Shown: positions 1,923 to 63,314, counted from the first letter of the stretch. The stretch is DNA of 64,000 nt from Clostridia bacterium (GCA_017483195.1 JAFULR010000016.1:73310-137309), one strand, 5' to 3'. A program made the numbers and translations. The notes: generated by a model from the letters alone, not told the origin.

Positions 1923-3317
1923 ATGAAACGTATAACAGTAAAAGAGATCTTTGCGTCCCCCGAAAAGTATGCGGGACAGAAAATCACCGTTGCAGGTTGG
2001 GCAAGAACCATTCGCGCCTCCAACGTTTTCGGATTTATCGAGCTTAACGACGGAAGCTATTTTAAAAATCTTCAGGTCGTTTTCGAGGATGCAAAGCTTG
2101 ACAATTATAAAACCATAGCAAAGCAGAACGTCGGATGCTCCTTTGTGATCGAGGGTACTCTTGAGCTTACTCCCGAGGCAAAGCAGCCCTTTGAGCTTAA
2201 GGCTGAAAGGATCGACGTTGAGGGCGCATCAACTCCCGATTATCCTCTTCAGAAGAAGAGACACAGCTTTGAATATCTCAGAACGATAGCGCATCTCCGT
2301 CCCAGAGCGAACACCTTTAACGCGGTGTTCCGTGTAAGAAGCGTAGCGGCTTATGCCATCCATAAGTTCTTCCAGGACAGAGGATTTGTTTACGTTCACA
2401 CCCCTCTTATCACGGGAAGCGACTGCGAGGGCGCGGGCGAGATGTTCCAGGTTACAACGCTTGATCTTGAAAATCCCCCAAGAACCGAGAACGGCGAGAT
2501 AGATTATACTCAGGATTTCTTCGGCAAAAAGGCGGGACTTACGGTTTCGGGTCAGCTCAACGTTGAGACCTATGCTATGGCATTTGCAAACGTATATACC
2601 TTCGGTCCCACGTTCCGCGCAGAGCGTTCAAATACTCAGAGACACGCGGCGGAATTCTGGATGGTTGAGCCTGAGCTTGCCTTTGCGGATCTTACCGACT
2701 ATATGGATACCGCCGAGGATATGATGAAATTCGTGCTTTCCTACGTAATGGAAAACTGCAAGGCAGAGATGGAATTCTTCAACAATTTCGTTGATAAGGG
2801 ACTTATCGACCGTCTTACTGCTCTTGTGAACAGTGATTTCGGTAGAATTACCTATACAGAAGCGGTTGAAAAGCTTCAGAGCTGCGGTCATACCTTTGAA
2901 TATCCCGTATATTGGGGAATGGATCTTCAGACCGAGCACGAGAGATATCTCACCGAGGAGATCTTTAAAAAGCCCGTATTCGTAACCGATTATCCCAAGG
3001 ATATCAAGGCATTCTATATGCGCCAGAACGACGACGGCAAGACCGTTGCTGCAGCGGATATGCTCGTTCCCGGTGTAGGTGAGCTTATCGGCGGCTCTCA
3101 GCGTGAGGAGAGAATGGAGAAGCTTCTTGAGGCTATGGCAAAGTTCAACCTCAACCCCGAGGATTATTGGTGGTATCTTGAGCTTCGCAAGTACGGCGGA
3201 TGCCGTCACGCAGGCTTTGGTCTTGGCTTTGAAAGACTTATTATGTACATCACGGGTATCTCCAACATCCGTGACGTTGAAGCGTTCCCAAGAACCACGG
3301 GTAACGCGGAATTTTAA
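1923..3317 (+). CDS. asnS: asparaginyl-tRNA synthetase
   Basis: 464 aa. N-terminal OB domain and class II motifs (GPTFRAE...[17 protein letters not shown]). Length is typical of Firmicute AsnRS. Confidence 0.93.
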
Positions 3318-3612
3318 TTAACGCACAAACTTATGCGATAAAGTTTTCGTCCACCTTTTTCAAAAGGTGGCGCGGGTACGGGGCGCGTAGCCCTGTATTC
3401 AGCGTTTCTTTTGTTAGCTTTTCTTTGCGCTTTCTGTGTCAAAGAAAAGCGGCTGACTGCTATTGGTATCAAAGGTCCTTTAACGCTTTTTCTTTTGAGA
3501 AAGTAGCCCCAAAAGAAAAAGCTTTGCAAAAAGAAAATGGGCGTATTCGCCTGCGCGGCGGGCGCCCGCTTTTGAAAAAGCGGGGCAAAACAGCAAGTTG
3601 GTTTGTGCTAAC
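3318..3612. repeat. hairpin-rich mosaic intergenic repeat (copy E)
   Basis: Strong hairpins at 3351-3370, 3417-3450, 3485-3522 and 3565-3585. Inverted ends GCACAAAC (3323-3330) and GTTTGTGC (3601-3608). The 32-nt block 3560-3591 is identical to 9931-9962. Confidence 0.7.
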
Positions 3613-3638: not shown

Positions 3639-4925
3639 TTGAGATACAGTGAAATGAGCAACCGCGAGCTTGAGAAATTATATCTTGAGCTTAAAAATGA
3701 ATATAAAACGGTGTGCGAGAGTGGTCTTTCGCTCGACCTTTCGCGCGGTAAGCCCGGCAGGGAGCAGCTCGATATGATGACGGGAATGCTTGACTGCATA
3801 TCAAAGAGCGAGGACTGTATAAACGAAAACGGAGTTGACTATAGAAATTACGGAATTCTTGAGGGAATTCCCGAGGCGAAGAAGCTTTTTTCGGAGCTTT
3901 TGAATATTCCACCCGAAAATATATTCGTTGCGGGAAACTCGTCGCTCAATCTTATGTACGATACGGTCGCAAGAGCGATGCTTTACGGCGTTCTCGGAAG
4001 CGCAAAGCCCTGGTGCAAGCTTCCCGTTGTAAAATTCATCTGCCCTGCGCCCGGATACGATAGGCATTTTGCCATCTGCCAATCCCTTGGAATTGAGATG
4101 ATAACCGTCGATATGACACCCACGGGTCCCGATATGGACGCGGTCGAAGCTCTCGTTGCAAATGACGATAGCATCAAGGGAATCTGGTGCTGCCCGAAAT
4201 ATTCAAATCCCGAGGGAATAACCTATTCCGACGAAACGGTGCGCCGCCTTGCTAAGATGCACACCGCGGCAAACGATTTCAGGATCTTCTGGGATAATGC
4301 CTATGCCGTACACGACCTCTATCCCGATAAGCGCGACGAGCTTGCTGACATTTTTGAGGTCTGCCTTGAGTGCGGACACATCGACAGAGTGTTCTATTTC
4401 GCATCGACCTCAAAGATATCATTTCCCGGCTCGGGTGTTGCCATCTTTGCCACAAGCACGAGGAACTATAATCAGATAAAGCCCATTCTTGCGGCGCAGA
4501 CGATAGGCTTTGATAAGATAAATCAGATAAGACACGTCAAATATTTCGGAAATGCGGAGAATATCCGTGAGCATATGAAAAAGCTTGCAGAGATCATCCG
4601 TCCAAAATTTGATATCGTCAAGGATACGCTCTCGCGCGAGCTCGGTGATGCCGATATAGCGACGTGGAGCGATCCGAACGGCGGATATTTTATCAGCCTT
4701 AATACACTTGACGGATGCGCAAAGCGAGTATATAAGCTGCTCAAGAAAGCGGGAGTTGTCGTAACCACCGTCGGAGCTACCTTCCCGTACGGAAACGACC
4801 TTCGCGATAGAAATATACGCATCGCGCCGACCTATCCCTCGAACGGGGAGCTTCAGCAAGCGATGAACGTCCTCTGCCTCTGCGTAAAGATCGCAAGCGT
4901 TGAGAAGATGCTGGATATAATTTAG
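3639..4925 (+). CDS. PLP-dependent aminotransferase (class I/II fold)
   Basis: The track ORF starts at 3630. Aminotransferase-like sequence with the pyridoxal-Lys motif [12 protein letters not shown]. The AGGAGG RBS at 3624-3629 favours TTG 3639; ATG 3654 is an alternative. Confidence 0.75.
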
Positions 4926-5225: not shown

Positions 5226-5519
5226 TTCAAATTTTTGATTTATTGGTCACTTTTTTCGAGAAAAAAGTGACCAAAAAAGCTTTAATCAGCTTCGCGGCAA
5301 TACCAATAAAATCTGTACTAACCTGTAGGGACCGGCGTCCCCGACGGTCCATAACGATGAAATAACATCAAATTTCACGGCTACGCACAAACAAAATCCA
5401 ACATTTTTGAACAAAAGTTACTTTGCTTTTGAATTGGACCGTCGGGGACGCCGGTCCCTACAAGGTTACTTCAATTAAAAATGAATTTGTACTAATCCCT
5501 CGCTAAATCCCAATTTATC
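5226..5519 (-). repeat. mosaic dyad-symmetric intergenic repeat (copy D, inverted orientation)
   Basis: Ends are TTCAAATTTTTGATTTATTGG (5226-5246) and TCCCTCGCTAAATCCCAATTTATC (5496-5519), the reverse complements of the ends seen at 13072-13495. Palindrome at 5243-5274. Perfect 27-bp inverted repeat 5324-5350 / 5436-5462. Confidence 0.75.
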
Positions 5520-5526
5520 AACACAT

Positions 5527-5554
5527 AACAAAAGAGGGAACTTATCGTTCCCTC
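5527..5554 (-). terminator. intrinsic terminator of tyrS
   Basis: On the minus strand, GAGGGAAC-GATAA-GTTCCCTC is followed by TTTTGTT, starting 7 nt after the tyrS stop. Confidence 0.8.
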
Positions 5555-5560
5555 AATTTT

Positions 5561-6778
5561 TTATTTAATTACAACCTTCTTAAAGTTCTTCTTACCTCTT
5601 CTTACGAGGATGCCGTCCTTAAGATCTGCGGCTGTGAAGCTGTGGCGAAGATTTGTGATCTTTTCGTCGTTGACCGTTACGCCGCCCTGTTCAACTGCTC
5701 TGCGAGCTTCACTACGAGAGGGAACAAGCTCCGCTTTAACGAGAACGGAGAGAATGTCGATCGCGCCGTCCTGAAGATCGGATTCTGCAAGCTCAACTGT
5801 GGGAGCGTTATCCGCGCCGCCCGTGAAGAGTGAGCGAGCCATTGCCTGCGCCTTTTCTGCCTCGTCCTTTCCGTGTACCATCTCTGTAAGCTCATAAGCA
5901 AGGATCTCCTTTGCACGGTTGAGCTGTGCGCCCTCCCAGGTATCCATCTCGTTGATCTGCTCAATGGGAAGGAAGGTGAGCATTCTGATGCACTTAAGCA
6001 CGTCAGCGTCGCCAACGTTTCTCCAGTACTGGTAGAACTCAAAGGGACTTGTCTTGTTAGGATCGAGCCAAACTGCGTTGCCTGCGGTCTTGCCCATCTT
6101 TTTGCCCTGAGAGTCGGTGAGAAGGGTGATAGTCATAGCGTGAGCGTCCTTGCCAAGCTTTCTTCTGATAAGCTCGGTACCGCCAAGCATATTTGACCAC
6201 TGATCGTCGCCGCCGAACTGCATATTGCAGTTGTAGTTCTTGAAAAGGTGGTAGAAGTCGTAGGACTGCATTATCATATAGTTGAATTCAAGGAAGGAAA
6301 GACCCTTTTCCATTCTCTGCTTGTAGCACTCTGCAGAGAGCATTCTGTTTACAGAGAAGCACGCGCCGACCTCACGAAGAAGCTCAACGTAATTGAGATC
6401 AAGGAGCCATTCGGCATTGTTGATCATAGTTGCCTTGCCTTCACCAAAGTCGATGAATCTCTCCATCTGACGCTTAAAGCACTCTGCGTTGTGGTTGATA
6501 TCCTCGATCGTGAGCATCTTTCTCATATCGGTTCTGCCCGAGGGGTCGCCGATCATTGTCGTGCCGCCGCCGATTAGGGCGATGGGCTTGTTGCCTGCCA
6601 TCTGCAAGCGTTTCATAAGTGTAAGAGCCATAAAGTGACCTGCCGTCAAGCTGTCTGCGGTGCAGTCAAAGCCGATGTAGAAGGTCGCCTTGCCCTCGTT
6701 GATCATATTTCTGATCTCTTCCTCGTTTGTAACCTGAGCAATAAGCCCACGCGCAACGAGTTCTTCATAGATTTTCAT
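5561..6778 (-). CDS. tyrS: tyrosyl-tRNA synthetase
   Basis: 405 aa. HIGH-type motif (ADSLTAGHF), KMSKS-type motif (KKMGKT) and a C-terminal S4-like domain. RBS AGGAGA. A Tyr-specific T-box lies upstream. Confidence 0.93.
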   Translation of the reverse strand: MKIYEELVARGLIAQVTNEEEIRNMINEGKATFYIGFDCTADSLTAGHFMALTLMKRLQMAGNKPIALIGGGTTMIGDPSGRTDMRKMLTIEDINHNAECFKRQMERFIDFGEGKATMINNAEWLLDLNYVELLREVGACFSVNRMLSAECYKQRMEKGLSFLEFNYMIMQSYDFYHLFKNYNCNMQFGGDDQWSNMLGGTELIRRKLGKDAHAMTITLLTDSQGKKMGKTAGNAVWLDPNKTSPFEFYQYWRNVGDADVLKCIRMLTFLPIEQINEMDTWEGAQLNRAKEILAYELTEMVHGKDEAEKAQAMARSLFTGGADNAPTVELAESDLQDGAIDILSVLVKAELVPSRSEARRAVEQGGVTVNDEKITNLRHSFTAADLKDGILVRRGKKNFKKVVIK

Positions 6779-6843
6779 AATTTTTCTCCTATCTGAAATG
6801 TAATTGTTAACTATTTATAAGTAACTTTGAATTAGGTAAGAAG

Positions 6844-7423
6844 GGAACTCCCTCACCGCCTACGGCGGAGCTCCCTCTGCGGAAGGAGCCTCGGTGAGAT
6901 AATCCTCGATTTATCAAATATAGTATTTGAAAAACTATTGTTTGCTACTTTTAACTTTATTGATTTCGGCATCCAAGTACCCGCAAACCCAAGTGAAATC
7001 CTTATCGATTTGCTTATTCGGTATTCTGATTATTTGAATACCTTGTTTATTTATTTCTTCGGTGCGTATTTTATCTTTTTCAATACCCTCTTTTGAATAG
7101 TGTTGATTTCCGTCAATTTCAATAGCAATTTTCAAGCTTGGACAATAGAAATCAACAATGTATTCTCCTATTGCTTTTTGCCTTTGAAATTTCACTTCAT
7201 AATTTTTTAAAAAGTCATACCAAAGGTGTTTTTCTTGCGGTGTAGATCTTTTTCTTAGGTTTTTTGCTAAAACTATGTTTTTTCCATTATAAATTATTGG
7301 CATAATTTTACCTCTGAAAAGTTTTATTAAATTGTTATGTTAAACTTTATGGCTACACAAGAGAGAAGATCTTACCGAGGCTCCTTCCGAGGAGGGAGCT
7401 CCGCGAAGCGGTGAGGGAGTTCC
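6844..7423 (-). mobile_element. TIR-bounded cassette carrying a DUF559 endonuclease gene
   Basis: 6844-6900 and 7369-7423 are ~55-nt imperfect inverted repeats whose outer 16 nt (GGAACTCCCTCACCGC) are identical. They enclose a single ORF. The first 48 nt are identical to 63067-63114. Confidence 0.7.
6935..7303 (-). CDS. DUF559 domain protein (Vsr/restriction-endonuclease-like fold)
   Basis: 122 aa. STPQEKHLW...KFQRQKAIGEYIVDFYCPSLKIAIEIDGNQH...IRIPN matches the conserved DUF559 pattern. RBS GAGGT. Confidence 0.85.
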   Translation of the reverse strand: MPIIYNGKNIVLAKNLRKRSTPQEKHLWYDFLKNYEVKFQRQKAIGEYIVDFYCPSLKIAIEIDGNQHYSKEGIEKDKIRTEEINKQGIQIIRIPNKQIDKDFTWVCGYLDAEINKVKSSKQ

Positions 7424-7445: not shown

Positions 7446-7705
7446 AAAAAAATAAAAAGTCCCTGAACCCAAACGGGTTCAAGGACGAATTAGCGTGATA
7501 CCACCTTGCTTCGAGCGAAATGCGTGCATTTTGCTCCTCATTATGCGCTGTAACGGGCGCGCCGTTGCCGCCTACTCTCAAAACGGATTTCGGGACAAAG
7601 CTCCGAGATGTATTCGCGTTATGTTTTCTGCGCCTCTCACCCACCGGCAGCTCTCTGTAGAAAAGGGAAAACGTTACTGCTTCTCTTCATAGCATTAATT
7701 TATTA
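7446..7705 (-). promoter_or_regulatory. T-box riboswitch leader, tyrosine specifier (UAC)
   Basis: Read on the minus strand: K-turn/AGUA region, AG bulge CAGAGAGC and distal loop GGUGGGUGAGAG. Specifier GAA-UAC-A (UAC = 7610-7612), F-box CCGUUAC and T-box AAGGUGGUAUCACG. Terminator at 7459-7486 followed by a U-tract. Confidence 0.88.
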
Positions 7706-9892: not shown

Positions 9893-10424
9893 AAATTAAG
9901 TTAGTTTACTTTGAACCGCTCACGCCGCTTGGGCGCCCGCTTTTGAAAAAGCGGGGCAAAACGATCGCTTGGTTTGAGCGCGACTTGGGTACCGCGCGAC
10001 GCCGTAAGGTGTCATCCTCGAGGGAGCAACGCGACCGAAGGATCTTGCGCGGAGTACAGACTAAATCCGCGTAAATTTTCGATAAAACACCGGTGTTTTA
10101 TCGGTTTTGAAGCTCCGATATCGTCCTTACACGCGAGCGTGATGGCTGATACCGTATCTTCAAAACTACGAAAAATCAAATTGGAAATTTGATTTTTCTA
10201 AAATTTGTTTACTATTATTGCAGACGTAAAGAAAGTGCTAATATACCGTCTATTGAGATCGTAGCAAATTACAGATTTTGCTTGCAAAATCGTTATGTGT
10301 TGCTCAGCAACACAATTTGCGCGGATTTAGTCGGGTTAGTACTAACTAAACGGCTTTTGGGCAAAGCGCTTTTAAGCTTTTTGGTTCTTTTTCTCGAAAA
10401 AGAACAATCCTTATCTATCTAACT
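9893..10424 (+). repeat. mosaic intergenic repeat (copy A, expanded, termini truncated)
   Basis: Shares the module CAATTTGCGCG...CTAAACGGCT...GGGCAAAGC...TTTTAAGCTTTTT (10313-10381) with copies B and C. Inverted repeat 10049-10078 / 10313-10345. Perfect palindromes at 10079-10103 and 10171-10197. Confidence 0.7.
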
Positions 10425-11417: not shown

Positions 11418-13051
11418 TGATTGATTTTGTTGATAAAATACCGAAAAGGCTTTTGATAGCCGTGAGCGGACTGCTTTTGGGACTTACCGTGATATACGCA
11501 AGGCTCGGAATACTTGCCTATATCGCTCTGATACCCTTGGGCATTGCGCTTTTTGGAAAACTGAATAGCGGCGAATACAAAAAGAGGGCGGCTTACCTTG
11601 ACGGCTTTATCTTCTATATGGGTTTTGACCTTGTATGCTTTCATTGGTTCATCTATTTCTATCCGCTTGAGTTTGCCGGATTTAACTATGCGGAGTCCGT
11701 TTTGATCATCGCACTTGCGTGGGTTGGACTCTCCTTGCTTCAAAGTGTGTTTTCCGCACTTGTTTTCGTGTTTATATCAGTACTTTCAAGGACTGTAATT
11801 TATAAAAGATCCCCCGTGCTTATGCCGTTTTTTGTGGCGGCGCTTTTCACGGCAAACGAATGGACGCAGACCTTTACGTGGGCGGGCGTTCCGTGGGGAA
11901 GAATAGCCATATCGCAAACCGAGATGCCGATACTTATGCAGAGCGCGTCTCTTTTCGGAAGCTATTTTTTGACATTTATTGTTGTTTTGATCAATATGCT
12001 ATTGGCTTATGCCATTGTTAACATTGAAAAACGCAGGTTTCTTGCTCTTTCCGCTCTTGGAATCTTTGCGGCAAACGCGCTCTTTGGCACGGTCGCTTAT
12101 TTCGTTCCTGCATCTGACGAGGAAAGATCCATTACCGTGGCGGCTGTTCAGGGAAATTTTCCATCGCAGACAAATTACGGAGCAACTGCTGTTGAGGTCT
12201 ACAAGACCTATGAAAAACTCACAATAGAAGCGGCTGAAGCGGGAGCGGATGTGATCATCTGGCCCGAGGGAACCTTTTCCATTGAGCCCGATCGCTATTT
12301 TATTTACGACGGTAAGCTGCTCACGCTTGGGGAAAGAGTATCCTCTCTTGCTGGGGAGAGCGGAGCTACCGTGATTATTGGAAGCTATACGATAAATTCA
12401 GAAAATCAGCTTCTCAATTCAATGTCGGTATATTATGAAAACGGAGAAAGGATCGAAGGAGCTTATTCCAAGATGAAGCGAGTGCCCTTTGGCGAGTACG
12501 TGCCTATGAGGGACCTTATTACGACGCTGCTTCCCATCCTTGGCGAGATAAACGTTCTCGGCACCGACGTATATCGAGGAGACGGATATAAGACCTACCC
12601 TGCATTTGCAGAGGAGGGCTCTGCGCAGATAGGTACTCTTATCTGCTTTGATTCCATATACGAGGAAACGGCTCTTTCAATGGCGAGAGAGGGAGCGGAG
12701 ATGCTTATCGTTCCTTCGAATGACTCGTGGTTTTACGATTCGCGCGCACTTAATATGCATCATTCTCAAAACATTCTGCGCGCGGTTGAAACCGGCAAAT
12801 ATACCGTGAACTGCGGAAATACGGGAATGACCTCCATCGTTAGCGACAAGGGTGAGGTGCTTGTGCAGATCCCCATATTTGAGGATGGATACGCTATTGG
12901 AACGGTTAGCCCTTCAAGTGTCAGAACACTATATTCGTACATAGGAAACCTTTTTGTTTATCTCTGTGTTGCGTTTGTGATTGCTTCTATTATCATTGAA
13001 GGTGTAATCAGATTAAAAAATAAGAAAAACTATAAAAAGCCTCTCTTGTAA
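11417..13051 (+). CDS. lnt: apolipoprotein N-acyltransferase
   Basis: 544 aa. N-terminal multi-TM region plus a CN-hydrolase domain with the E-K-C triad context (IIWPEG, SKMKRVPFGEYVP, LICFDS). Its ATG overlaps the upstream stop by 1 nt. Confidence 0.8.
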   Translation: MIDFVDKIPKRLLIAVSGLLLGLTVIYARLGILAYIALIPLGIALFGKLNSGEYKKRAAYLDGFIFYMGFDLVCFHWFIYFYPLEFAGFNYAESVLIIALAWVGLSLLQSVFSALVFVFISVLSRTVIYKRSPVLMPFFVAALFTANEWTQTFTWAGVPWGRIAISQTEMPILMQSASLFGSYFLTFIVVLINMLLAYAIVNIEKRRFLALSALGIFAANALFGTVAYFVPASDEERSITVAAVQGNFPSQTNYGATAVEVYKTYEKLTIEAAEAGADVIIWPEGTFSIEPDRYFIYDGKLLTLGERVSSLAGESGATVIIGSYTINSENQLLNSMSVYYENGERIEGAYSKMKRVPFGEYVPMRDLITTLLPILGEINVLGTDVYRGDGYKTYPAFAEEGSAQIGTLICFDSIYEETALSMAREGAEMLIVPSNDSWFYDSRALNMHHSQNILRAVETGKYTVNCGNTGMTSIVSDKGEVLVQIPIFEDGYAIGTVSPSSVRTLYSYIGNLFVYLCVAFVIASIIIEGVIRLKNKKNYKKPLL

Positions 13052-13066
13052 AGGGAGGCTTTTTTG
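13038..13066 (+). terminator. intrinsic terminator of lnt
   Basis: AGCCTCTC / GGGAGGCT stem enclosing the stop codon, then TTTTT. Confidence 0.65.
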
Positions 13067-13071
13067 CGCGT

Positions 13072-13495
13072 TAATTGGGGTTTAGCGGGGAGTTAGTTTA
13101 GTTGGGATTTAGGGGGCATTTTTGAAAAAATTGCCCCCTATAACCCCTAAAAAACTTTAAATCGTTTTGCAAACAAACTTCGCGCAAATTGTGTTGTTTC
13201 ACAACACACAACGATTTTCTCCCTTGTCGAAAATCTGTAATTTGCTTGTGTAAAGAGTAGCCATTAGCTTATGCAAACCGGCTTCGTGCCGTGTAGCAAA
13301 TTACAATTTTTCGAGGTGACGAGAAAAATTTTCAGTACCAATTTATTGGTACAATTTGCGCGAAATCCGTGGACTCAGCACAGACTAAACGGCTACTGGG
13401 CAAAGCTATTTTAAGCTTTTTTGGTTACTTTTTTCTCGAAAAAAGTAACACCCTTTCTTAACACAAACTATCTCCCCGATAAATCAAAATTTGAA
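13072..13495 (+). repeat. mosaic dyad-symmetric intergenic repeat (copy B, full length 424 bp)
   Basis: Left end is TAATTGGGGTTTAGCGGGGAG and right end is CTCCCCGATAAATCAAAATTTGAA. The left half aligns with the reverse complement of the right half. Central inverted repeat CGCGCAAATTG (13181-13191) / CAATTTGCGCG (13352-13362). Confidence 0.8.
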
Positions 13496-14464
13496 CGTGA
13501 AAATCGCAAATGCGAGGGCGGCACAAAGCAGTCCTTGCATCAATTTTATAAAGAAAAACCTTTTGAACGAGAGCCCATATCCGTCGCACATCGCGATGAT
13601 CTGAAAATGTATCGAAAGCCCCGACCATCCAAGAAAAAAAGCGCAAACGGCGCATTTAAAAGCATATGGCGTAAGGTCTGAGAGTGATAGCACACCGCCC
13701 GTTATCTCAACTGTGCTGAGCAGGAGCTTTTGTATAATATCGGGCAAACCGAGTGAGCAAAGAGGTTGACGGATGGCTTCGGTAAGCGAGGAGAAAAATA
13801 TTACACAAGCGCATATGAGTATCATCGAAGCGGACGAGTGAGATATCGCCTCGACGATGATTTTTGGGAAGGGCTTTTTCGGAGAATTTTCTTCGTTAAT
13901 TCCGTTTAGTACAAACTCAAGATTCGCACATTTATTTTTTGATTTTACAAAAAATCCGATAATGAAGGATGATAATATTGATATAATCCACAAAATCCAA
14001 CCGTCGGTTGTGCTTTTTAATACGGATGAACCTAAAAATCCCGTGATGAACGGCAGGGAAGGAATGGAAAAGGAGGTAATGATCCATTCGCAGTCTTTAT
14101 TTGTTATTCTTTTCTTCTTCAAAAGTGACAGCGCACCGCTTATCGCAGCGGTATAACCGCAAAAAAGTCCCAATATCAAAGGAGCAGAGGCTTCTTTTTT
14201 TATTCCAAATATTTTGGATATGATTTTAGCGATCGGCCGTAGCAGCTTTTCCGCCGCTCCGCTAACGATCGCTATCTCGGATGCCGCCATAAGCGGAAAA
14301 AGGGACGGAATGAGAAGAGCTCCGCATTTTCCGACAGCACTTGCCGCTGCCCCGGCGGTAATTTCCGGATCATTCAAAAAAAGAGCGAGAAGGATAAGAG
14401 AAAAAACACATACGGCAAACGTTGTTATTCGCTTTTTGAAGCTTTTTGATGCGGATGGATTCAT
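13484..14464 (-). CDS. ylbJ: YlbJ-like sporulation integral membrane protein
   Basis: Multi-pass membrane protein resembling YlbJ. ATG 14464 is preceded by GAAGAGGGG; the track ORF runs to 14596. The last 4 codons (including the stop) lie inside repeat copy B. Confidence 0.55.
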   Translation of the reverse strand: MNPSASKSFKKRITTFAVCVFSLILLALFLNDPEITAGAAASAVGKCGALLIPSLFPLMAASEIAIVSGAAEKLLRPIAKIISKIFGIKKEASAPLILGLFCGYTAAISGALSLLKKKRITNKDCEWIITSFSIPSLPFITGFLGSSVLKSTTDGWILWIISILSSFIIGFFVKSKNKCANLEFVLNGINEENSPKKPFPKIIVEAISHSSASMILICACVIFFSSLTEAIRQPLCSLGLPDIIQKLLLSTVEITGGVLSLSDLTPYAFKCAVCAFFLGWSGLSIHFQIIAMCDGYGLSFKRFFFIKLMQGLLCAALAFAIFTFKF

Positions 14465-23279: not shown

Positions 23280-23291
23280 CTATAAAGTGAT

Positions 23292-23714
23292 AAATTGGAA
23301 TTTATGGTGGAGATAGTTTAATTTGGAATAGCAGGGGGCTTTTTTGAAAAGCCGCCCCCTGCACCCCCGAAAAACTTTTAAAGTATTTTATCACTAAATT
23401 CCGCGCAAATTGTTCCGCAAGCGGAACGAGACGATTTTCTTTGCATTTTAACAGGCGCAAAGAAAATCTCTAATTTGCTAATGCAAATAATAACCATTTG
23501 CTTTGCTTGTGGCTATAGATAGAGTAGCAAATTGCAGTTTTTCGACAAGGGAGAAAAACGTTATGTGTTGCTCCGCAACACAATTTGCGCGAAATCCGTG
23601 GAGTCAGTACAGACTAAACGGCTACTGGGCAAAGCTATTTTAAGCTTTTGCCAAGCTTTTCTCGAAAAGCGTCCTTTTTTTTCTAACTAATTCCCCTATA
23701 AATCAAAATTTGAA
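23292..23714 (+). repeat. mosaic dyad-symmetric intergenic repeat (copy C, full length 423 bp)
   Basis: Ends are AAATTGGAATTTATGGTGGAG and TTCCCCTATAAATCAAAATTTGAA. 23581-23649 matches 13352-13420 at 67/69 nt. Central inverted repeat CGCGCAAATTG (23402-23412) / CAATTTGCGCG (23581-23591). Confidence 0.8.
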
Positions 23715-32763: not shown

Positions 32764-35082
32764 ATGAAAAACTTGAAAATTGCTACACTGTTGGTATTTG
32801 TAATCGTTGTTATGATTTTCACACTTACTTCCTGTGAATTTATAAACAACATTTTTCCAAATCCCAACACGGGCCACACCCATACTTACAATGAAGGTAA
32901 GTGCGAATGCGGAGCAGAGGATCCTGACTATGTTCCTCCTCACGAACACAGCTACACAACTGTAGTTACAGACCCCACATGTACTGAAAAAGGCTACACA
33001 ACCTACACATGTGCTTGTGGCGATACCTACGTAGCTGACGAGGTTGAAGCATCCGGTCACGATTATGAAGCAACCGTTACAGCTCCCACATGTACTGAAA
33101 AAGGCTATACAACCTACACATGTGCTTGTGGCGACACCTATGTAGCTGACGAGGTTGAAGCATCCGGTCACGATTATGAAGCAACCGTTACAGCTCCTAC
33201 ATGTACAGAGGATGGTTACACAACCTACACATGTGCTTGTGGCGATAGCTACGTTGACGATGAAGTTCCTGCAGCTCATACCTACAATGATGACGGTATT
33301 TGCACAGCTTGTGGAGATCAGATTTCCGCAATTCCTGTTGAAGGCAAGGGATACATCTTCGGAATGTATCAGGGTAAGCTTAATAAAGTGTACTACCTTA
33401 AGGGTGGTATGAGTGGATACTATATGGCAACTACCGATAATCCCGATGAAGCTCTCTATGTATTTATTGAGGCAACTGAAGGTGGATACTATATGTATTG
33501 CTATGTAAATGGTGTAAAGACATACATTAACATGGTTGTTTCCGGTACACACGTAAACGGTGCTTATGCTACCACAGCTTCTACTGTTTATACAATCGAT
33601 CCCGAAAGCAAGACACTTATAGCAAATGTTAACGGAGAAGATTATTGGTTCGCTACCAGAAATGATAATACATATACAACCATGGGACCCTGCAAGGTTT
33701 CCTACGATGGTTTCTACGGTGAATTCTACTATGAACACGAGCATTCTTTTGAGGTTAGTGAAGTTGTTGCTCCTACATGTACAGGAGTAGGATATACTCT
33801 CCATGCTTGTGCTTGCGGTGCAACCAAGAAGACTGATGAAATTGATGCTCTCGGTCACAAAGGAGGCGAATGGGAGATTGAATCCAACGCTACTTGTGAA
33901 GAAGCAGGCAAGAAAGTGATCAAATGTCAAAACGAAGGATGCGGTGAGGTGCTTGAAAGCGAAGAAATCCCCGCGCTCGGTCATACTTACGTTGACGGCA
34001 AGTGTGCTTGCGGAGCTGAAGACCCCGACTACGCGGCTCATGAGCACAAATATACAGAAACAATTACTGCACCCACTTGTACAGTTGAAGGCGTTAAGAC
34101 TTTCACATGTGCTTGCGGTGATACTTATACAGAAGCTATTCCTGTAGTTGATCATATCGATACAAACCTTGATATTACTTGTGACTTTGAGGGATGCACA
34201 AAGAGAATCCTTCCTGCCGCAAACAGTAAAGTGTCTCTCTTTACTGCAAATCATATGATCATTGTATCTCTCAGCAGCAGCTATTATGTTGAGGGTGTTA
34301 TAATTGAAATCACCGATGCTAAAAACGGTATTTTCATTATACAGGATGAAGCGGGTGACACTATTCTTGTTAGAATGCCCAAGAATGAAGCAGGTGTTGC
34401 TTATTCCTCTTGGACAGCTAATAAAGTAGTTGTTGGTGATACCGTTCAGATATACGGTAAGCCCGCCAGAAATACTGGCTCTCCTGCAACACAATCTGCC
34501 AAGATCGAAAGCGGAATACTTACAATCCTTAAGCATGAGCATTCATTCAGCGAAGCAACCTGTGATAAGGCTTCCGTTTGTGCTTGTCTTGCAGTAGGTG
34601 AGCCCGCACTTGGACACATTGATGAAAACGCAGATAACGTTTGTGACCGTTGTCCTTGGAAAATGAATATGGCAAAATCAAGTATTGCAATCGGTACAGC
34701 AGAGAAGTATAACGGAGTTCTTGATGCTGCTCAGACTTTCTGGACTTGGAGTAATGATGATTTTGATGCTGTTATAGCAAAGGGAACATCAACATTTACC
34801 ATTTATAAAACTGCTAAGGATTACATGCAGCTTAAGAAGCAGAACACATTTACATTGGTTAACAAGAGCGGTGTTGTAATTACAAGTATTACTATTAAAG
34901 CAAGCAATGCAACTCAGCTCAATAACCTTGTAAATGCAATCGGTAATCAGTATACAGTAACTACAAATACAGATGACCTTAGTGTTACTATCGAGTGGAA
35001 TAAGACAGATGATTTTACCTTTAGTAATATTAGCACTACAACTGTATATATCAGTGGTGTTGAAGTCATTTACGAAAAGTAA
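32764..35082 (+). CDS. surface lipoprotein with repeated Cys/His modules, an OB-fold-like domain and an unknown C-terminal domain
   Basis: 772 aa. Signal peptide with lipobox LTSC. Repeated H-x-Y...PTCTE-GY...C-CG...GH modules. The 34260-34520 segment resembles the OB fold of extracellular nucleases. Confidence 0.8.
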   Translation: MKNLKIATLLVFVIVVMIFTLTSCEFINNIFPNPNTGHTHTYNEGKCECGAEDPDYVPPHEHSYTTVVTDPTCTEKGYTTYTCACGDTYVADEVEASGHDYEATVTAPTCTEKGYTTYTCACGDTYVADEVEASGHDYEATVTAPTCTEDGYTTYTCACGDSYVDDEVPAAHTYNDDGICTACGDQISAIPVEGKGYIFGMYQGKLNKVYYLKGGMSGYYMATTDNPDEALYVFIEATEGGYYMYCYVNGVKTYINMVVSGTHVNGAYATTASTVYTIDPESKTLIANVNGEDYWFATRNDNTYTTMGPCKVSYDGFYGEFYYEHEHSFEVSEVVAPTCTGVGYTLHACACGATKKTDEIDALGHKGGEWEIESNATCEEAGKKVIKCQNEGCGEVLESEEIPALGHTYVDGKCACGAEDPDYAAHEHKYTETITAPTCTVEGVKTFTCACGDTYTEAIPVVDHIDTNLDITCDFEGCTKRILPAANSKVSLFTANHMIIVSLSSSYYVEGVIIEITDAKNGIFIIQDEAGDTILVRMPKNEAGVAYSSWTANKVVVGDTVQIYGKPARNTGSPATQSAKIESGILTILKHEHSFSEATCDKASVCACLAVGEPALGHIDENADNVCDRCPWKMNMAKSSIAIGTAEKYNGVLDAAQTFWTWSNDDFDAVIAKGTSTFTIYKTAKDYMQLKKQNTFTLVNKSGVVITSITIKASNATQLNNLVNAIGNQYTVTTNTDDLSVTIEWNKTDDFTFSNISTTTVYISGVEVIYEK
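32941..33279 (+). repeat. in-frame tandem repeat, 111-bp unit, ~3 copies
   Basis: Units start at about 32947, 33058 and 33169. Each encodes HDYEATVTAPTCTEKGYTTYTCACGDTYVADEVEASG or a close variant. Copies 1-2 are nearly identical at the DNA level. Confidence 0.9.
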
Positions 35083-37506: not shown

Positions 37507-37559
37507 TTCAAATTTTTATTTATAGAGGAATACCACTCCCCTATAAATCAAAATTTGAA
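37507..37559. repeat. minimal 53-bp member of the mosaic repeat family (two termini only)
   Basis: TTCAAATTTTTATTTATAGAGGA (37507-37529) and TCCCCTATAAATCAAAATTTGAA (37537-37559) are inverted (21/23) and separated by 7 nt. Confidence 0.75.
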
Positions 37560-41192: not shown

Positions 41193-41996
41193 ATGAAATT
41201 TTTTGATTCTCACGCGCATTATTTCGACGCGTGGTTTAACGAATACGAGGGCGGAGCGGACGCGCTTCTTAAAAAGCTTTTTGCGGATAAGGTCGGAGCG
41301 ATAGTGAATATTGCCACAAATCCCGAAAATCTTAAGGAGTGCATAGCGCAGGCTAAAAAATATGAAAATATGTACGTTTCGTCGGGAATTCACCCCGAGG
41401 ATTGCCTTTATATCGAAGATATCGATGAAGCTCTTGAGCAGATAGAGGCAAGCGTGCGCGACGAAGACTTGCGCAAGGAGAACAAGATAGTGGCGATAGG
41501 TGAGATAGGCTTTGACTACCATCTTGACGAGCTTACGGACGAGGTAAAGGAAAAGCAGAGATACGTTTTTGATGCTCAGATGAAAATGGCTCAAAAATAC
41601 GGCTTGCCCGTGATAATCCACGACAGAGAAGCGCACGGAGATTGCTTTGAGATGGCTTTGAAATACCCCGACGTGAAGGGAATATTCCACAGCTACAGCG
41701 GCTCTTCGGAAATGGCGAGGGAGCTTATACGCCGCGGCTGGTATATCTCGTTTTCGGGCGTAGTGACCTTCAAAAACGCGAGTCGCGTGCGTGATGTGCT
41801 TGCGAGCATCCCGCTTGATCGCTTGCTTATAGAGACCGACGCGCCCTATCTTTCTCCCCATCCTCTGAGGGGTAAGATGAACCATTCGGGCAACCTCGAA
41901 TATACCGTAGGCGCCATCGCGGCAGTTTTCGGAAAAACGCCGGAGGAGATCGCACAGATCACGTTTGAAAATGCGAAAAAAATTTATAATTTATGA
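41193..41996 (+). CDS. tatD: TatD-family metal-dependent hydrolase
   Basis: 267 aa. FDSHAH, EIGFDYH and ETDAPYL motifs. metG-tatD synteny as in Bacillus. Confidence 0.87.
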   Translation: MKFFDSHAHYFDAWFNEYEGGADALLKKLFADKVGAIVNIATNPENLKECIAQAKKYENMYVSSGIHPEDCLYIEDIDEALEQIEASVRDEDLRKENKIVAIGEIGFDYHLDELTDEVKEKQRYVFDAQMKMAQKYGLPVIIHDREAHGDCFEMALKYPDVKGIFHSYSGSSEMARELIRRGWYISFSGVVTFKNASRVRDVLASIPLDRLLIETDAPYLSPHPLRGKMNHSGNLEYTVGAIAAVFGKTPEEIAQITFENAKKIYNL

Positions 41997-41999
41997 TAA

Positions 42000-42035
42000 A
42001 AAGAGCCCGTTTTTTGAAAAAACGGGCTCTTTTTG
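42000..42035 (+). terminator. intrinsic terminator of tatD
   Basis: AAGAGCCCGTTTTTT / AAAAAACGGGCTCTT long stem followed by TTTT. Confidence 0.8.
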
Positions 42036-42116
42036 GCACGAATTTTAATAGGTGTTGACAAATTTATAATAGAATGCTATAATTTTTATAACAGTACCTG
42101 ATAAGGAGGGAAAGTG

Positions 42117-60566: not shown

Positions 60567-60597
60567 AAAAAGCCGCGGAGCGATCCGCGGCTTTTTG
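60567..60597. terminator. bidirectional intrinsic terminator
   Basis: AAAAGCCGCGGA-GCGA-TCCGCGGCTTTT. Confidence 0.85.
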
Positions 60598-62982: not shown

Positions 62983-63019
62983 ATTTTTTGCTCCTTTTTT
63001 AGATTATGTAATGTGGAAT

Positions 63020-63314
63020 AATTGGGGTTTAGCGGGAAATTAAAAAGTAAGTTTATTTGTGCAACAGGAACTCCCTCACCGCCTACGGCGGAGCTCCCTC
63101 TGCGGAAGGAGCCTATTTAAGATGACCTTTCACAATTAGCTGTACAACTTAAATTGTTTGATGCTATATGGTTTTTAAATACTTTATGGCTACATAAGGA
63201 GGAACATCTTACCGAGGCTCCTTCCGCAGAGGGAGCTGTCATTTTCCTTGGAAAATGACTGAGGGAGTTCCCCTTTTTTAAGAAAACCAACTTTCCAATA
63301 AATCAAGATTTGAA
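63020..63314 (+). repeat. mosaic repeat family member hosting a nested DUF559-type TIR element
   Basis: Left end AATTGGGGTTTAGCGGG (63020-63036) and right end CCAATAAATCAAGATTTGAA (63295-63314), the same termini as copies B and C. The interior is replaced by 63067-63271. Confidence 0.7.
63067..63271 (-). mobile_element. gene-less (MITE-like) derivative of the DUF559 cassette
   Basis: 63067-63114 is identical (48/48) to 6844-6891. The right TIR 63206-63271 matches 7369-7423 apart from one swapped hairpin. The subterminal ACTTTATGGCTACA is shared with 7344-7357. No ORF inside. Confidence 0.75.

Follow-up and report, generated by a model that had tools for sequence, protein, structure and literature searches.

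A clade-restricted family of mosaic palindromic repeats with unlike ends in Clostridia of ruminant guts

What is a stretch of 424 bp that lies between genes, is built of inverted repeats nested within inverted repeats, and has relatives in the same neighbourhood? The question is raised by positions 13072-13495 of a 64-kb segment of DNA from a Clostridia bacterium (GCA_017483195.1, JAFULR010000016.1:73310-137309), which is referred to here as the window; all numbering is by position in the window and strands are given relative to it. The original prediction had described an unnamed dyad-symmetric element with an architecture of REPIN (paired repetitive extragenic palindromic, REP, sequences) or MITE (short for miniature inverted-repeat transposable element) type. 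The answer developed below is that 13072-13495 is probably a non-coding, DNA-level palindromic repeat, part of a clade-specific mosaic extragenic family that resembles REPINs, bacterial interspersed mosaic elements (BIMEs) and MITEs, and that would have spread and been reshuffled by the route proposed further on. The family is apparently undescribed (its end sequences were not found in the literature searched, in line with the prediction), and is of the REP/BIME/MITE sort, not a new type of system.

Anatomy of the element and its two ends

Along 13072-13495 a repeat finder returned four inverted pairs, one within another, together with side hairpins at 13104-13146 and at 13424-13449. The outermost pair (13073-13099 and 13465-13491) is 27 nt long and 81% complementary, the CGCGCAAATTGT pair (13179-13192 and 13351-13364) is 14 nt long and 100% complementary, and the inner pair (13227-13246 and 13295-13314) reaches 90% over 20 nt. 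The coordinates and sequences predicted for the element were all correct, and the claim that its left half answers to the reverse complement of its right half stands as far as the nested pairs and hairpins go, but a match over the whole length was an overstatement: the element and its reverse complement share a global identity of 0.63, and shuffled sequences one of 0.55.

Read from left to right, the element opens with the type-1 terminus TAATTGGGGTTTAGCGGGGAG (13072-13092, plus strand; end-motif scan and end logo), 8 nt past the lnt terminator at 13034-13064. The side hairpin H1' GGGGGCATTTTTGAAAAAATTGCCCCC follows (13112-13138; repeat finder and multi-copy alignment), whose outer stem differs among copies and whose T-run/A-run core is conserved. 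The remaining modules were delimited by the repeat finder and the alignment. Specifically, these are the left anchor CGCGCAAATTGT, directly followed by the hairpin GTGTTGTTTCACAACAC (13181-13207, plus strand), the inner inverted pair TCGAAAATCTGTAATTTGCT / AGCAAATTACAATTTTTCGA (13227-13314) round a 48-nt centre that contains a TAGCC...GGCT core, the right hairpin GTACCAATTTATTGGTAC followed by the anchor ACAATTTGCGCG (13335-13362, minus strand), which mirrors 13181-13207 with a different stem, and the side hairpin H1 GGTTACTTTTTTCTCGAAAAAAGTAAC (13423-13449). The type-2 terminus, in reverse complement TTCAAATTTTGATTTATCGGGGAG (13472-13495, minus strand; end-motif scan and end logo), closes the element. 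The anchor and hairpin doublet (13181-13207 and 13335-13362) consists of inverted units that can fold into one hairpin. The termini and modules of 13072-13495 are free of any GTAG-footed GC hairpin, a scan found no promoter-like or terminator-like site inside the element and, as had been claimed, no open reading frame (ORF), transposase or Rfam family accounts for it.

The element is also nearly, if not strictly, intergenic, as had been stated of the whole family: its right end overlaps three codons and the stop of a gene ending at 13484. More specifically, the type-2 end at 13484-13495 encodes the last three codons and the stop (TFKF*) of a convergent minus-strand gene of 326 aa, and this gene end is supplied by the type-2 terminus in every strain allele seen. 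The predicted neighbourhood of terminators was borne out, with many ends lying 5-10 nt beyond a terminator T-tract.

A check by folding, suggested with the original prediction, came out in its favour, since each strand has a much more stable fold than its dinucleotide shuffles (-146.7 kcal/mol, z = -8.6 on one strand; -148.2 kcal/mol, z = -8.9 on the other). The window was further scanned with a degenerate end motif (AAATTKKGRTTTAKNGGGGA, at most three mismatches, 100 shuffles), which gave 11 matches where 0.36 are expected (about 30-fold), a number that none of the 100 shuffles reached. Ten of these matches form five convergent pairs (5230/5516, 13072/13492, 23292/23711, 37510/37556 and 63019/63311), and the eleventh (13099-13118) lies inside 13072-13495. 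Chance similarity or an assembly artefact, which has only the AT-rich composition of the termini to recommend it, is thus extremely unlikely in the face of the end matches, of fold z-scores near -9, and of independent assemblies from many samples that carry the same elements at the same sites.

The conserved part that defines the family is only a pair of unlike ends of about 21-24 nt, complementary to each other but for a fixed 2-nt mismatch, with TTC-AAATTTTGATTTATCGGGGAG at one side and CTCCCCGMTAAATCCCAATTT-AT at the other. Nearly all pairs consist of one type-2 end (AAATTTTGATTTATCGGGGAG) and one type-1 end (AAATTGGGATTTAKCGGGGAG), to be read with the fact that the loci from the GTDB database were selected by a type-2-like pattern; the window was not so selected, and there the pairing holds for four of the five pairs. 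Position 6 is T versus G in 50 of 56 end pairs and the adjacent position is mostly mismatched too, so that the elements are polar. Complementarity between the arms fades past about position 21, and covariation between the two ends is barely over expectation beyond position 20. Within each end lies a small dyad (ATAAAT-N4-ATTTAT, then CGGGGAG); the ends carry CGGGGAG(A/T), and a minority, in few copies, read GGGGAGAC.

At 54 aligned junctions T-T-T-C stands ahead of the type-2 side (61%, 89%, 87% and 81%) and A-T-c comes after the type-1 side (76%, 67% and 46%), with no direct repeat that would mark a target-site duplication. The boundary was placed after the TTC/GAA triplet because of a rearrangement in another locus, L145 (loci from other genomes are given by such numbers), whose breakpoint falls exactly at the element end and where a gene abuts right after ...AAAATTTGAA. 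In that locus positions 3757-4052 correspond to the window element 5226-5519, with another gene, for a carboxylesterase, joined on at the type-2 terminus (12 nt to its start codon). Head-to-tail copies were also seen, with a type-1 end 1-3 nt from the next TTC and type-2 end (L105, ~3775-3802; L113, ~4406-4435).

Old sites with changing interiors

Within the window, the closest relative is the second full-length copy of the same subfamily at 23289-23714 (plus strand), between the prs terminator and a DUF1385 gene. It has the polarity of 13072-13495 (type-1 end left) and is 69% identical to it over 449 aligned columns, which upholds the relative predicted at 23292-23714. The other copies that had been listed are of two kinds. 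Paired ends are indeed present at 5226-5519 (minus strand, thus inversely oriented), which holds a GTAG-type REP doublet (5325-5350 and 5436-5461) and one side hairpin, at 37507-37559, where two type-2 ends alone make up a minimal copy of 53 bp, and at 63019-63314 (plus strand), whose interior is a different one, an ORF-less relic of the GC-rich inverted repeats on either side of a DUF559 gene (6843-7423). The remaining two share interior modules, and their ends are degenerate or missing: 9893-10424 (plus strand) is a mosaic with eroded ends, having lost about 14 nt of its type-1 end and kept right-arm modules of the 390-430-bp subfamily, and 3318-3612 (plus strand) is an interior with both ends missing, homologous to the interior of the third allele (L149) at the 23289-23714 site. 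Together with the DUF559 unit the repeats make up about 4-5% of the window. Two near-perfect palindromes that self-comparison brought up (41996-42036 and 60568-60596) were considered as family members and rejected, being ordinary bidirectional intrinsic terminators.

Copies beyond the window do exist, and in number, so that the outcome named as refuting the original prediction, a genome-wide lack of others, clearly does not apply. An exact scan for AAATTTTGATTTATNGGGGA in one genome per GTDB species gave at least 120 further stretches, nearly all of them from metagenome-assembled genomes (MAGs) labelled Clostridia, Eubacteriales or Oscillospiraceae, from the guts of yak, sheep and deer; many matches lie less than 300 nt from a contig end, as expected of repeats that break assemblies. 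Among the matches listed (120 loci, 0.70 Mb) there are 231 end matches and 53 convergent pairs, the latter spanning 86-758 bp with no preferred size (47-758 bp between end motifs when the window copies are included). As a control, 805 kb round Prs homologues of distant relatives (55-89% identity) yielded 4 end matches, no CGCGCAAATYGT anchors and no REPs, compared with 11, 5 and 2, respectively, in the 64 kb of the window. Plasmids (PLSDB) gave no match to the family, and viral contigs (IMG/VR) a single one, by chance, within coding sequence. The repeat family is clade-restricted, non-coding and palindromic.

The short copies consist of a shell bounded by the two ends and one central unit. A frequent interior unit is a doublet of GTAGGGACNGGCGTCCYCGACNGTCC, in which a 5' GTAG tag sits at the foot of a GC hairpin, a hallmark of the REPs associated with REP-associated tyrosine transposases (RAYTs; PMC6006769). 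Of 43 such GTAG REPs, 38 are on the expected side of an end and no more than 800 bp away from it; the distance between the start of a REP and that of the nearest end motif is typically about 46-64 nt. With respect to the shell the doublet can point either way, it is also present shell-free in L085, and 5226-5519 is a copy of this type. A shell orthologous to 63019-63314 (L132) holds an intact DUF559 ORF.

The DUF559 unit of the window itself (6843-7423) comprises a 122-aa gene with a Vsr-like endonuclease fold (ORF 6935-7303, minus strand) between GC-rich inverted repeats of 45-58 bp. It behaves like a small mobile unit and is absent in an otherwise identical strain (L135), where the empty site reads ...GTTAACTA|AATAATAAAAG.

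The elements at 13072-13495 and at 23289-23714 are members of a subfamily, about 390-430 bp long, that has the same layout in different species. Five copies of 391-429 bp from unrelated loci of other MAGs (L060, L106, L097, L117 and L065) align end to end with 13069-13495 and 23289-23714, and the mean column identity of the seven-copy alignment is 62%. The order of parts is, in the first half, type-2 end, H1, AAAAACTTTTAAA, CGCGCAAATYGT with H2, TTTGCTA and the central TAGCC...GGCTA hairpin, and in the second half TAGCAAA, H2' with ACRATTTGCGCG, TTTAAAAGTTTTT, H1' and type-1 end. Its long-range pairs are conserved and almost invariant in the seven copies, with little covariation signal (RNAalifold). 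The hairpins next to the anchors behave differently: in 39 of them the mean perfect stem is 7.1 bp, against 2.8 bp after shuffling, and 21 distinct stems across the 39 anchors are linked by stepwise double changes (for instance GTGTTG/CAACAC, GTATTG/CAATAC, GTAATG/CATTAC and GTTCCAAC/GTTGGAAC). These changes fit selection for hairpins, and they also fit a template-switch 'correction' of quasi-palindromes, for which no selection is needed.

What happens at one site was followed in contigs of conspecific strains that encode identical flanking proteins. With flanks 91-100% identical, such strains have the same ends at the same site and different interiors. At the 13072-13495 site there are at least four alleles, with intergenic gaps of 432 bp (the window), 820, 920 and 1114 bp, and the flanks are 96-98.5% identical. 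Both termini and the right arm are common to all of them, and the place of the left arm is taken by 400-700 bp of GC-rich modules (among them a DUF559-type repeat and several ...CCCTAC units). Because only one arm is replaced, recombination or template switching is indicated here, not transposition of the whole element. Three alleles at the 23289-23714 site (intergenic 361, 560 and 578 bp) have unrelated interiors and only the outermost 10-15 nt in common, and 9893-10424 has in one strain lost an 82-bp module and gained 19 bp, with a compensated change in a hairpin. Elements of different size also occupy matching sites across species (62973 in the window and L088; L082 and L057). The family thus diversifies by replacement, gain and loss of interior modules with the outermost 10-15 nt fixed, several copies being without one or both ends (3318-3612 and 9893-10424). 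In short, old sites hold interiors that keep changing, and the form of 424 bp is one allele of a hypervariable site and represents one subfamily in its intact state.

Such persistence could also be read as the work of the host, in that the elements would be protein-binding or architectural sites, no longer mobile, whose ends bind a nucleoid, topoisomerase or regulatory protein, much as the BIMEs of E. coli bind IHF, gyrase and Pol I. The long stay at matching sites across species would fit, as would the ends being the sole strictly conserved part, the small dyad in each of them and the lack of signs of recent transposition. However, nothing appears to have taken the place of the ends, one or both, that are gone from 3318-3612 and 9893-10424, a related species is without the element at 9893-10424, and no candidate binding protein was identified, so that this explanation is rather improbable.

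Improbable to a still greater degree is a family of structured RNAs, that is, 3'-untranslated-region stabilisers, terminators or small-RNA genes under selection for folding. The very stable fold, the cross-species layout with its stepwise compensatory stem changes and the position just past terminators and genes are in its favour, and REPs and MITEs are often transcribed (PMC3733652). Against it stand the interiors wholly replaced between conspecific strains and the long-range pairs, mostly invariant and with no covariation signal. A DNA-level element is favoured, moreover, because both strands fold equally, because Rfam 15 gave no match for the repeat family anywhere in the window (sub-threshold matches over 12950-13600 being terminator-like noise only), because promoter-like and terminator-like sites are lacking in the element, and because element orientation (type-2 to type-1) has no significant bias relative to the genes by a crude ORF-based gene call (tandem 12 and 7, convergent 13, divergent 7). 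The evidence therefore points to a DNA-level repeat rather than RNA, and transcribed copies may have a role as RNA.

The search for an enzyme and the likeness to known repeats

Neither between paired ends nor next to them was a transposase found, whether in the window or in about 0.7 Mb of end-bearing loci. A 3.1-kb end pair (L074) was rejected as an autonomous partner, the genes it encloses being housekeeping genes, and other unpaired ends were likewise rejected as ends of autonomous elements, since they showed either a degenerate partner or ordinary genes.

A tblastn search with E. coli RayT found no RAYT-like gene in the window and, among the end-bearing loci, one intact homologue of 180 aa (L106, 3218-3760, minus strand; E = 2.6e-7) and a deleted RAYT-like copy (L120, ~5550-5849). 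The sole NCBIfam match of the intact protein is REP_Tyr_transpos (5.3e-16; 58.8 bits, below the 80-bit cut-off), and its Pfam match to Y1_Tnp is weak. Two in-frame GTAGGGACAGGCGTCCTCGACTGTCC GTAG REPs bracket the HUH motif of this gene, and in-frame REPs have been described for tnpA_REP subclass 2.4 (PMC6006769). The gene accounts for the nested GTAG REPs. It could not be tied to the shell ends as their cognate enzyme: its more than 4000 homologues, mostly in MAGs of Oscillospiraceae/Clostridia, have conserved housekeeping surroundings in the contexts examined, and neither surroundings nor distribution link them to the ends.

Some further observations concern these genes themselves. GTAGGG/CCCTAC motifs also occur within the gene of a 68%-identical homologue, and what is missing from the deleted copy is precisely the segment that the REPs bound, as though the doublet had been cut out. 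Three loci have an apparent NUDIX-RAYT operon, with RAYT-like genes also at L239 4001-4510 and L241 4001-4504. Upstream of the NUDIX-RAYT genes in L239 lies a 1.27-kb intergenic mosaic of repeat modules (2316-3588), which has a type-1 terminus at its end, about 65 nt short of the NUDIX start; in L106 and L240, too, this side is occupied.

A rival reading is the classical MITE, in which the ends of about 21 nt would be binding sites for a DDE transposase whose gene lies in a full-length insertion sequence at another place in the genome, with cut-and-paste of any interior, by which the unrelated interiors would be accounted for. Conserved inverted ends round arbitrary interiors, a cargo-bearing version (the DUF559 ORF) and the minimal ends-only copy of 53 bp all agree with this, and an autonomous copy could have escaped notice since MAG assemblies break at repeats. 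But the 54 junctions are free of target-site duplications, the end-bearing loci of transposases beside the ends, the two ends are consistently unlike, recent near-identical copies are missing, and the replacement of one arm at 13072-13495 fits recombination instead of whole-element transposition; a MITE in this sense is therefore unlikely. The predicted REPIN/MITE type accordingly holds for an intergenic palindromic repeat family but not for a strict MITE, as there is no target-site duplication and a partner transposon was not found.

Several known systems share part of this picture. REPs and REPINs are similar in being extragenic, non-coding, hairpin-forming inverted doublets with no target-site duplication, in their hundreds of diverged copies that are inherited vertically and persist at matching sites, and in that sister copies here hold true GTAG-tagged doublets and the clade has a RAYT-like gene with in-frame REPs (L106). 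They differ in that the ends described here are AT-rich inverted repeats of 21 nt with no 5' GT[AG]G tag, that the elements are longer (to about 760 bp between end motifs) and multi-layered, that there is no abundant identical 'master' copy, and that the RAYT-like gene is not bracketed by the ends. By the strict definition of a REP (GT[AG]G at the foot of a 20-40-nt hairpin), 13072-13495 is not one, and only modules nested in sister copies are. The BIMEs of enterobacteria are likewise mosaics that combine palindromic units with linkers, they too lie behind terminators and in the gaps of convergent or tandem gene pairs, and their unit content at a given locus differs between strains; the likeness is one of organisation only, the sequences of the E. 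coli palindromic units not having been compared. Unlike the present family, with which they are unrelated in sequence, BIMEs have no enclosing conserved terminal repeats and are arrays of REPs in place of concentric nested palindromes.

Also comparable are the tyrosine transposases that have long terminal inverted repeats on either side (TIRs; 'TIRYT') and the related TIR repeat families, some of which have a common GGGGWSAS motif (Di Nocera et al. 2013, PMC3733652). These TIRtron families are moderately abundant inverted repeats unrelated to GTAG REPs, often found as dimers or clusters, and in Pseudomonas degenerate REPs and unrelated stem-loops are joined in hundreds of composites (PMC3733652). 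The resemblance of CGGGGAG(A/T) to GGGGWSAS is a lead, not a test: GGGGWSAS is present in some TIRs, and an exact match here (GGGGAGAC) in few copies only, so that the motif match is partial. Further differences are that no transposase gene flanked by the ends was found and that the TIR families were described in Proteobacteria and Acidobacteria, not in Clostridia.

Bacterial MITEs (Correia/NEMIS, ERIC, RUP, Bcr1) have terminal inverted repeats of 15-30 bp, which are present here as well, and are non-coding, intergenic and stably folded; the pneumococcal BOX element (boxA-boxB(n)-boxC) is modular and variable in length. MITEs nevertheless make target-site duplications (e.g. TA for Correia) and keep to a narrow size range, whereas the present family, compared with MITEs and BOX, has no duplication, a roughly tenfold size range, unlike ends and concentric layers. 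Palindrome-associated transposable elements (PATEs), derived from IS200/IS605, have unlike left and right ends, subterminal hairpins, no inverted ends and no duplication, and insert 3' of a fixed tetra- or pentanucleotide. Here there is no duplication and a 5' TTTC is conserved, but the ends are inverted repeats with no conserved subterminal hairpin. Integron attC sites, finally, have R''-L'' ... L'-R' boxes with a GTTRRRY core, measure 57-141 bp and form cassette arrays beside an integrase; the ends described here are without GTTRRRY, and the copies are dispersed among housekeeping genes with no integrase.

The route proposed for the family is the following. In single-stranded or cruciform DNA the two ends would pair and close the element into a branched rod, which an enzyme acting in trans, and making no target-site duplication, could have spread. 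By analogy with the systems above, the likeliest such enzyme would be a single-strand-specific HUH tyrosine transposase of RAYT/TIRYT type, put forward here as a tentative candidate. Template switching, or else ectopic recombination between copies, would reshuffle the interiors, the insertion of further palindromic elements near the apex (GTAG REP doublets, the DUF559 unit) would do so as well, and any host role (termination, insulation, recombination hotspot) would be a by-product.

A number of results weigh against this reading. No transposition event was seen and no near-identical copies were found at different sites, so that there is no sign of recent activity. Flank-to-flank searches of all loci for a conspecific empty site gave only sites filled by other alleles; the empty site at 9893-10424 in another species (L107) is too diverged to define a junction, and a metagenome Prs scan for empty sites returned mostly relatives outside the clade with different synteny. 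The ends are without the 5' GT[AG]G tag that RAYTs recognise, the RAYT-like gene has an end-bounded element on one side only, some of its homologues come from genera or loci without good end matches, and the link between an enzyme and the shell ends is only one of analogy. The gene call behind the orientation count is crude, and the conserved layout with its compensatory hairpins could equally reflect selection for a structured RNA or a protein-binding scaffold.

Two further thoughts go beyond the proposed spread and reshuffling. It is conceivable, if unlikely, that the shell serves as a structured-DNA 'landing pad', at which hairpin cassettes would be exchanged at fixed sites by single-strand-specific enzymes. 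The paired ends in a hairpin or cruciform would then present the apex for insertion, swap or excision of cassettes (GTAG REP doublets, the DUF559 endonuclease unit, AT-rich hairpins), and the TT/CC or GG/AA mismatch would set polarity, as extrahelical bases set that of integron attC sites. Relatedly, the conserved-layout subfamily of 390-430 bp could be a functional structured nucleic acid.

Uses of the family and other features of the window

The repeats break metagenome assemblies of a large uncultured group of Clostridia from ruminant guts, and knowledge of their ends and layout should improve (i) assembly, (ii) annotation and (iii) the detection of rearrangement breakpoints. Strain typing is possible as well, since the sites are hypervariable between conspecific strains. 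More generally, the REP/REPIN/BIME picture, which comes mostly from Proteobacteria, would be extended to Clostridia, and fixed sites with swapped interiors and nested REP doublets offer a natural system for studying the recombination and persistence of hairpin repeats. If the ends turn out to be substrates of tyrosine (HUH) transposases, the TIR-type repeats associated with these enzymes, which have been little studied, would gain a well-populated example in this family.

Among other features, no tRNAs were detected in the window. The sole Rfam match is a T-box leader at 7478-7699 (minus strand; 105 bits, above the gathering score), upstream of a tyrosyl-tRNA synthetase gene (5561-6778), and the DUF559 unit sits between this leader and the gene. 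Finally, tandem and dispersed 111-nt repeats occupy 32947-34128 within a long ORF (32764-35082) and encode a cysteine-containing repeat of about 37 aa (…PTCTEKGYTTYTCACGD…).

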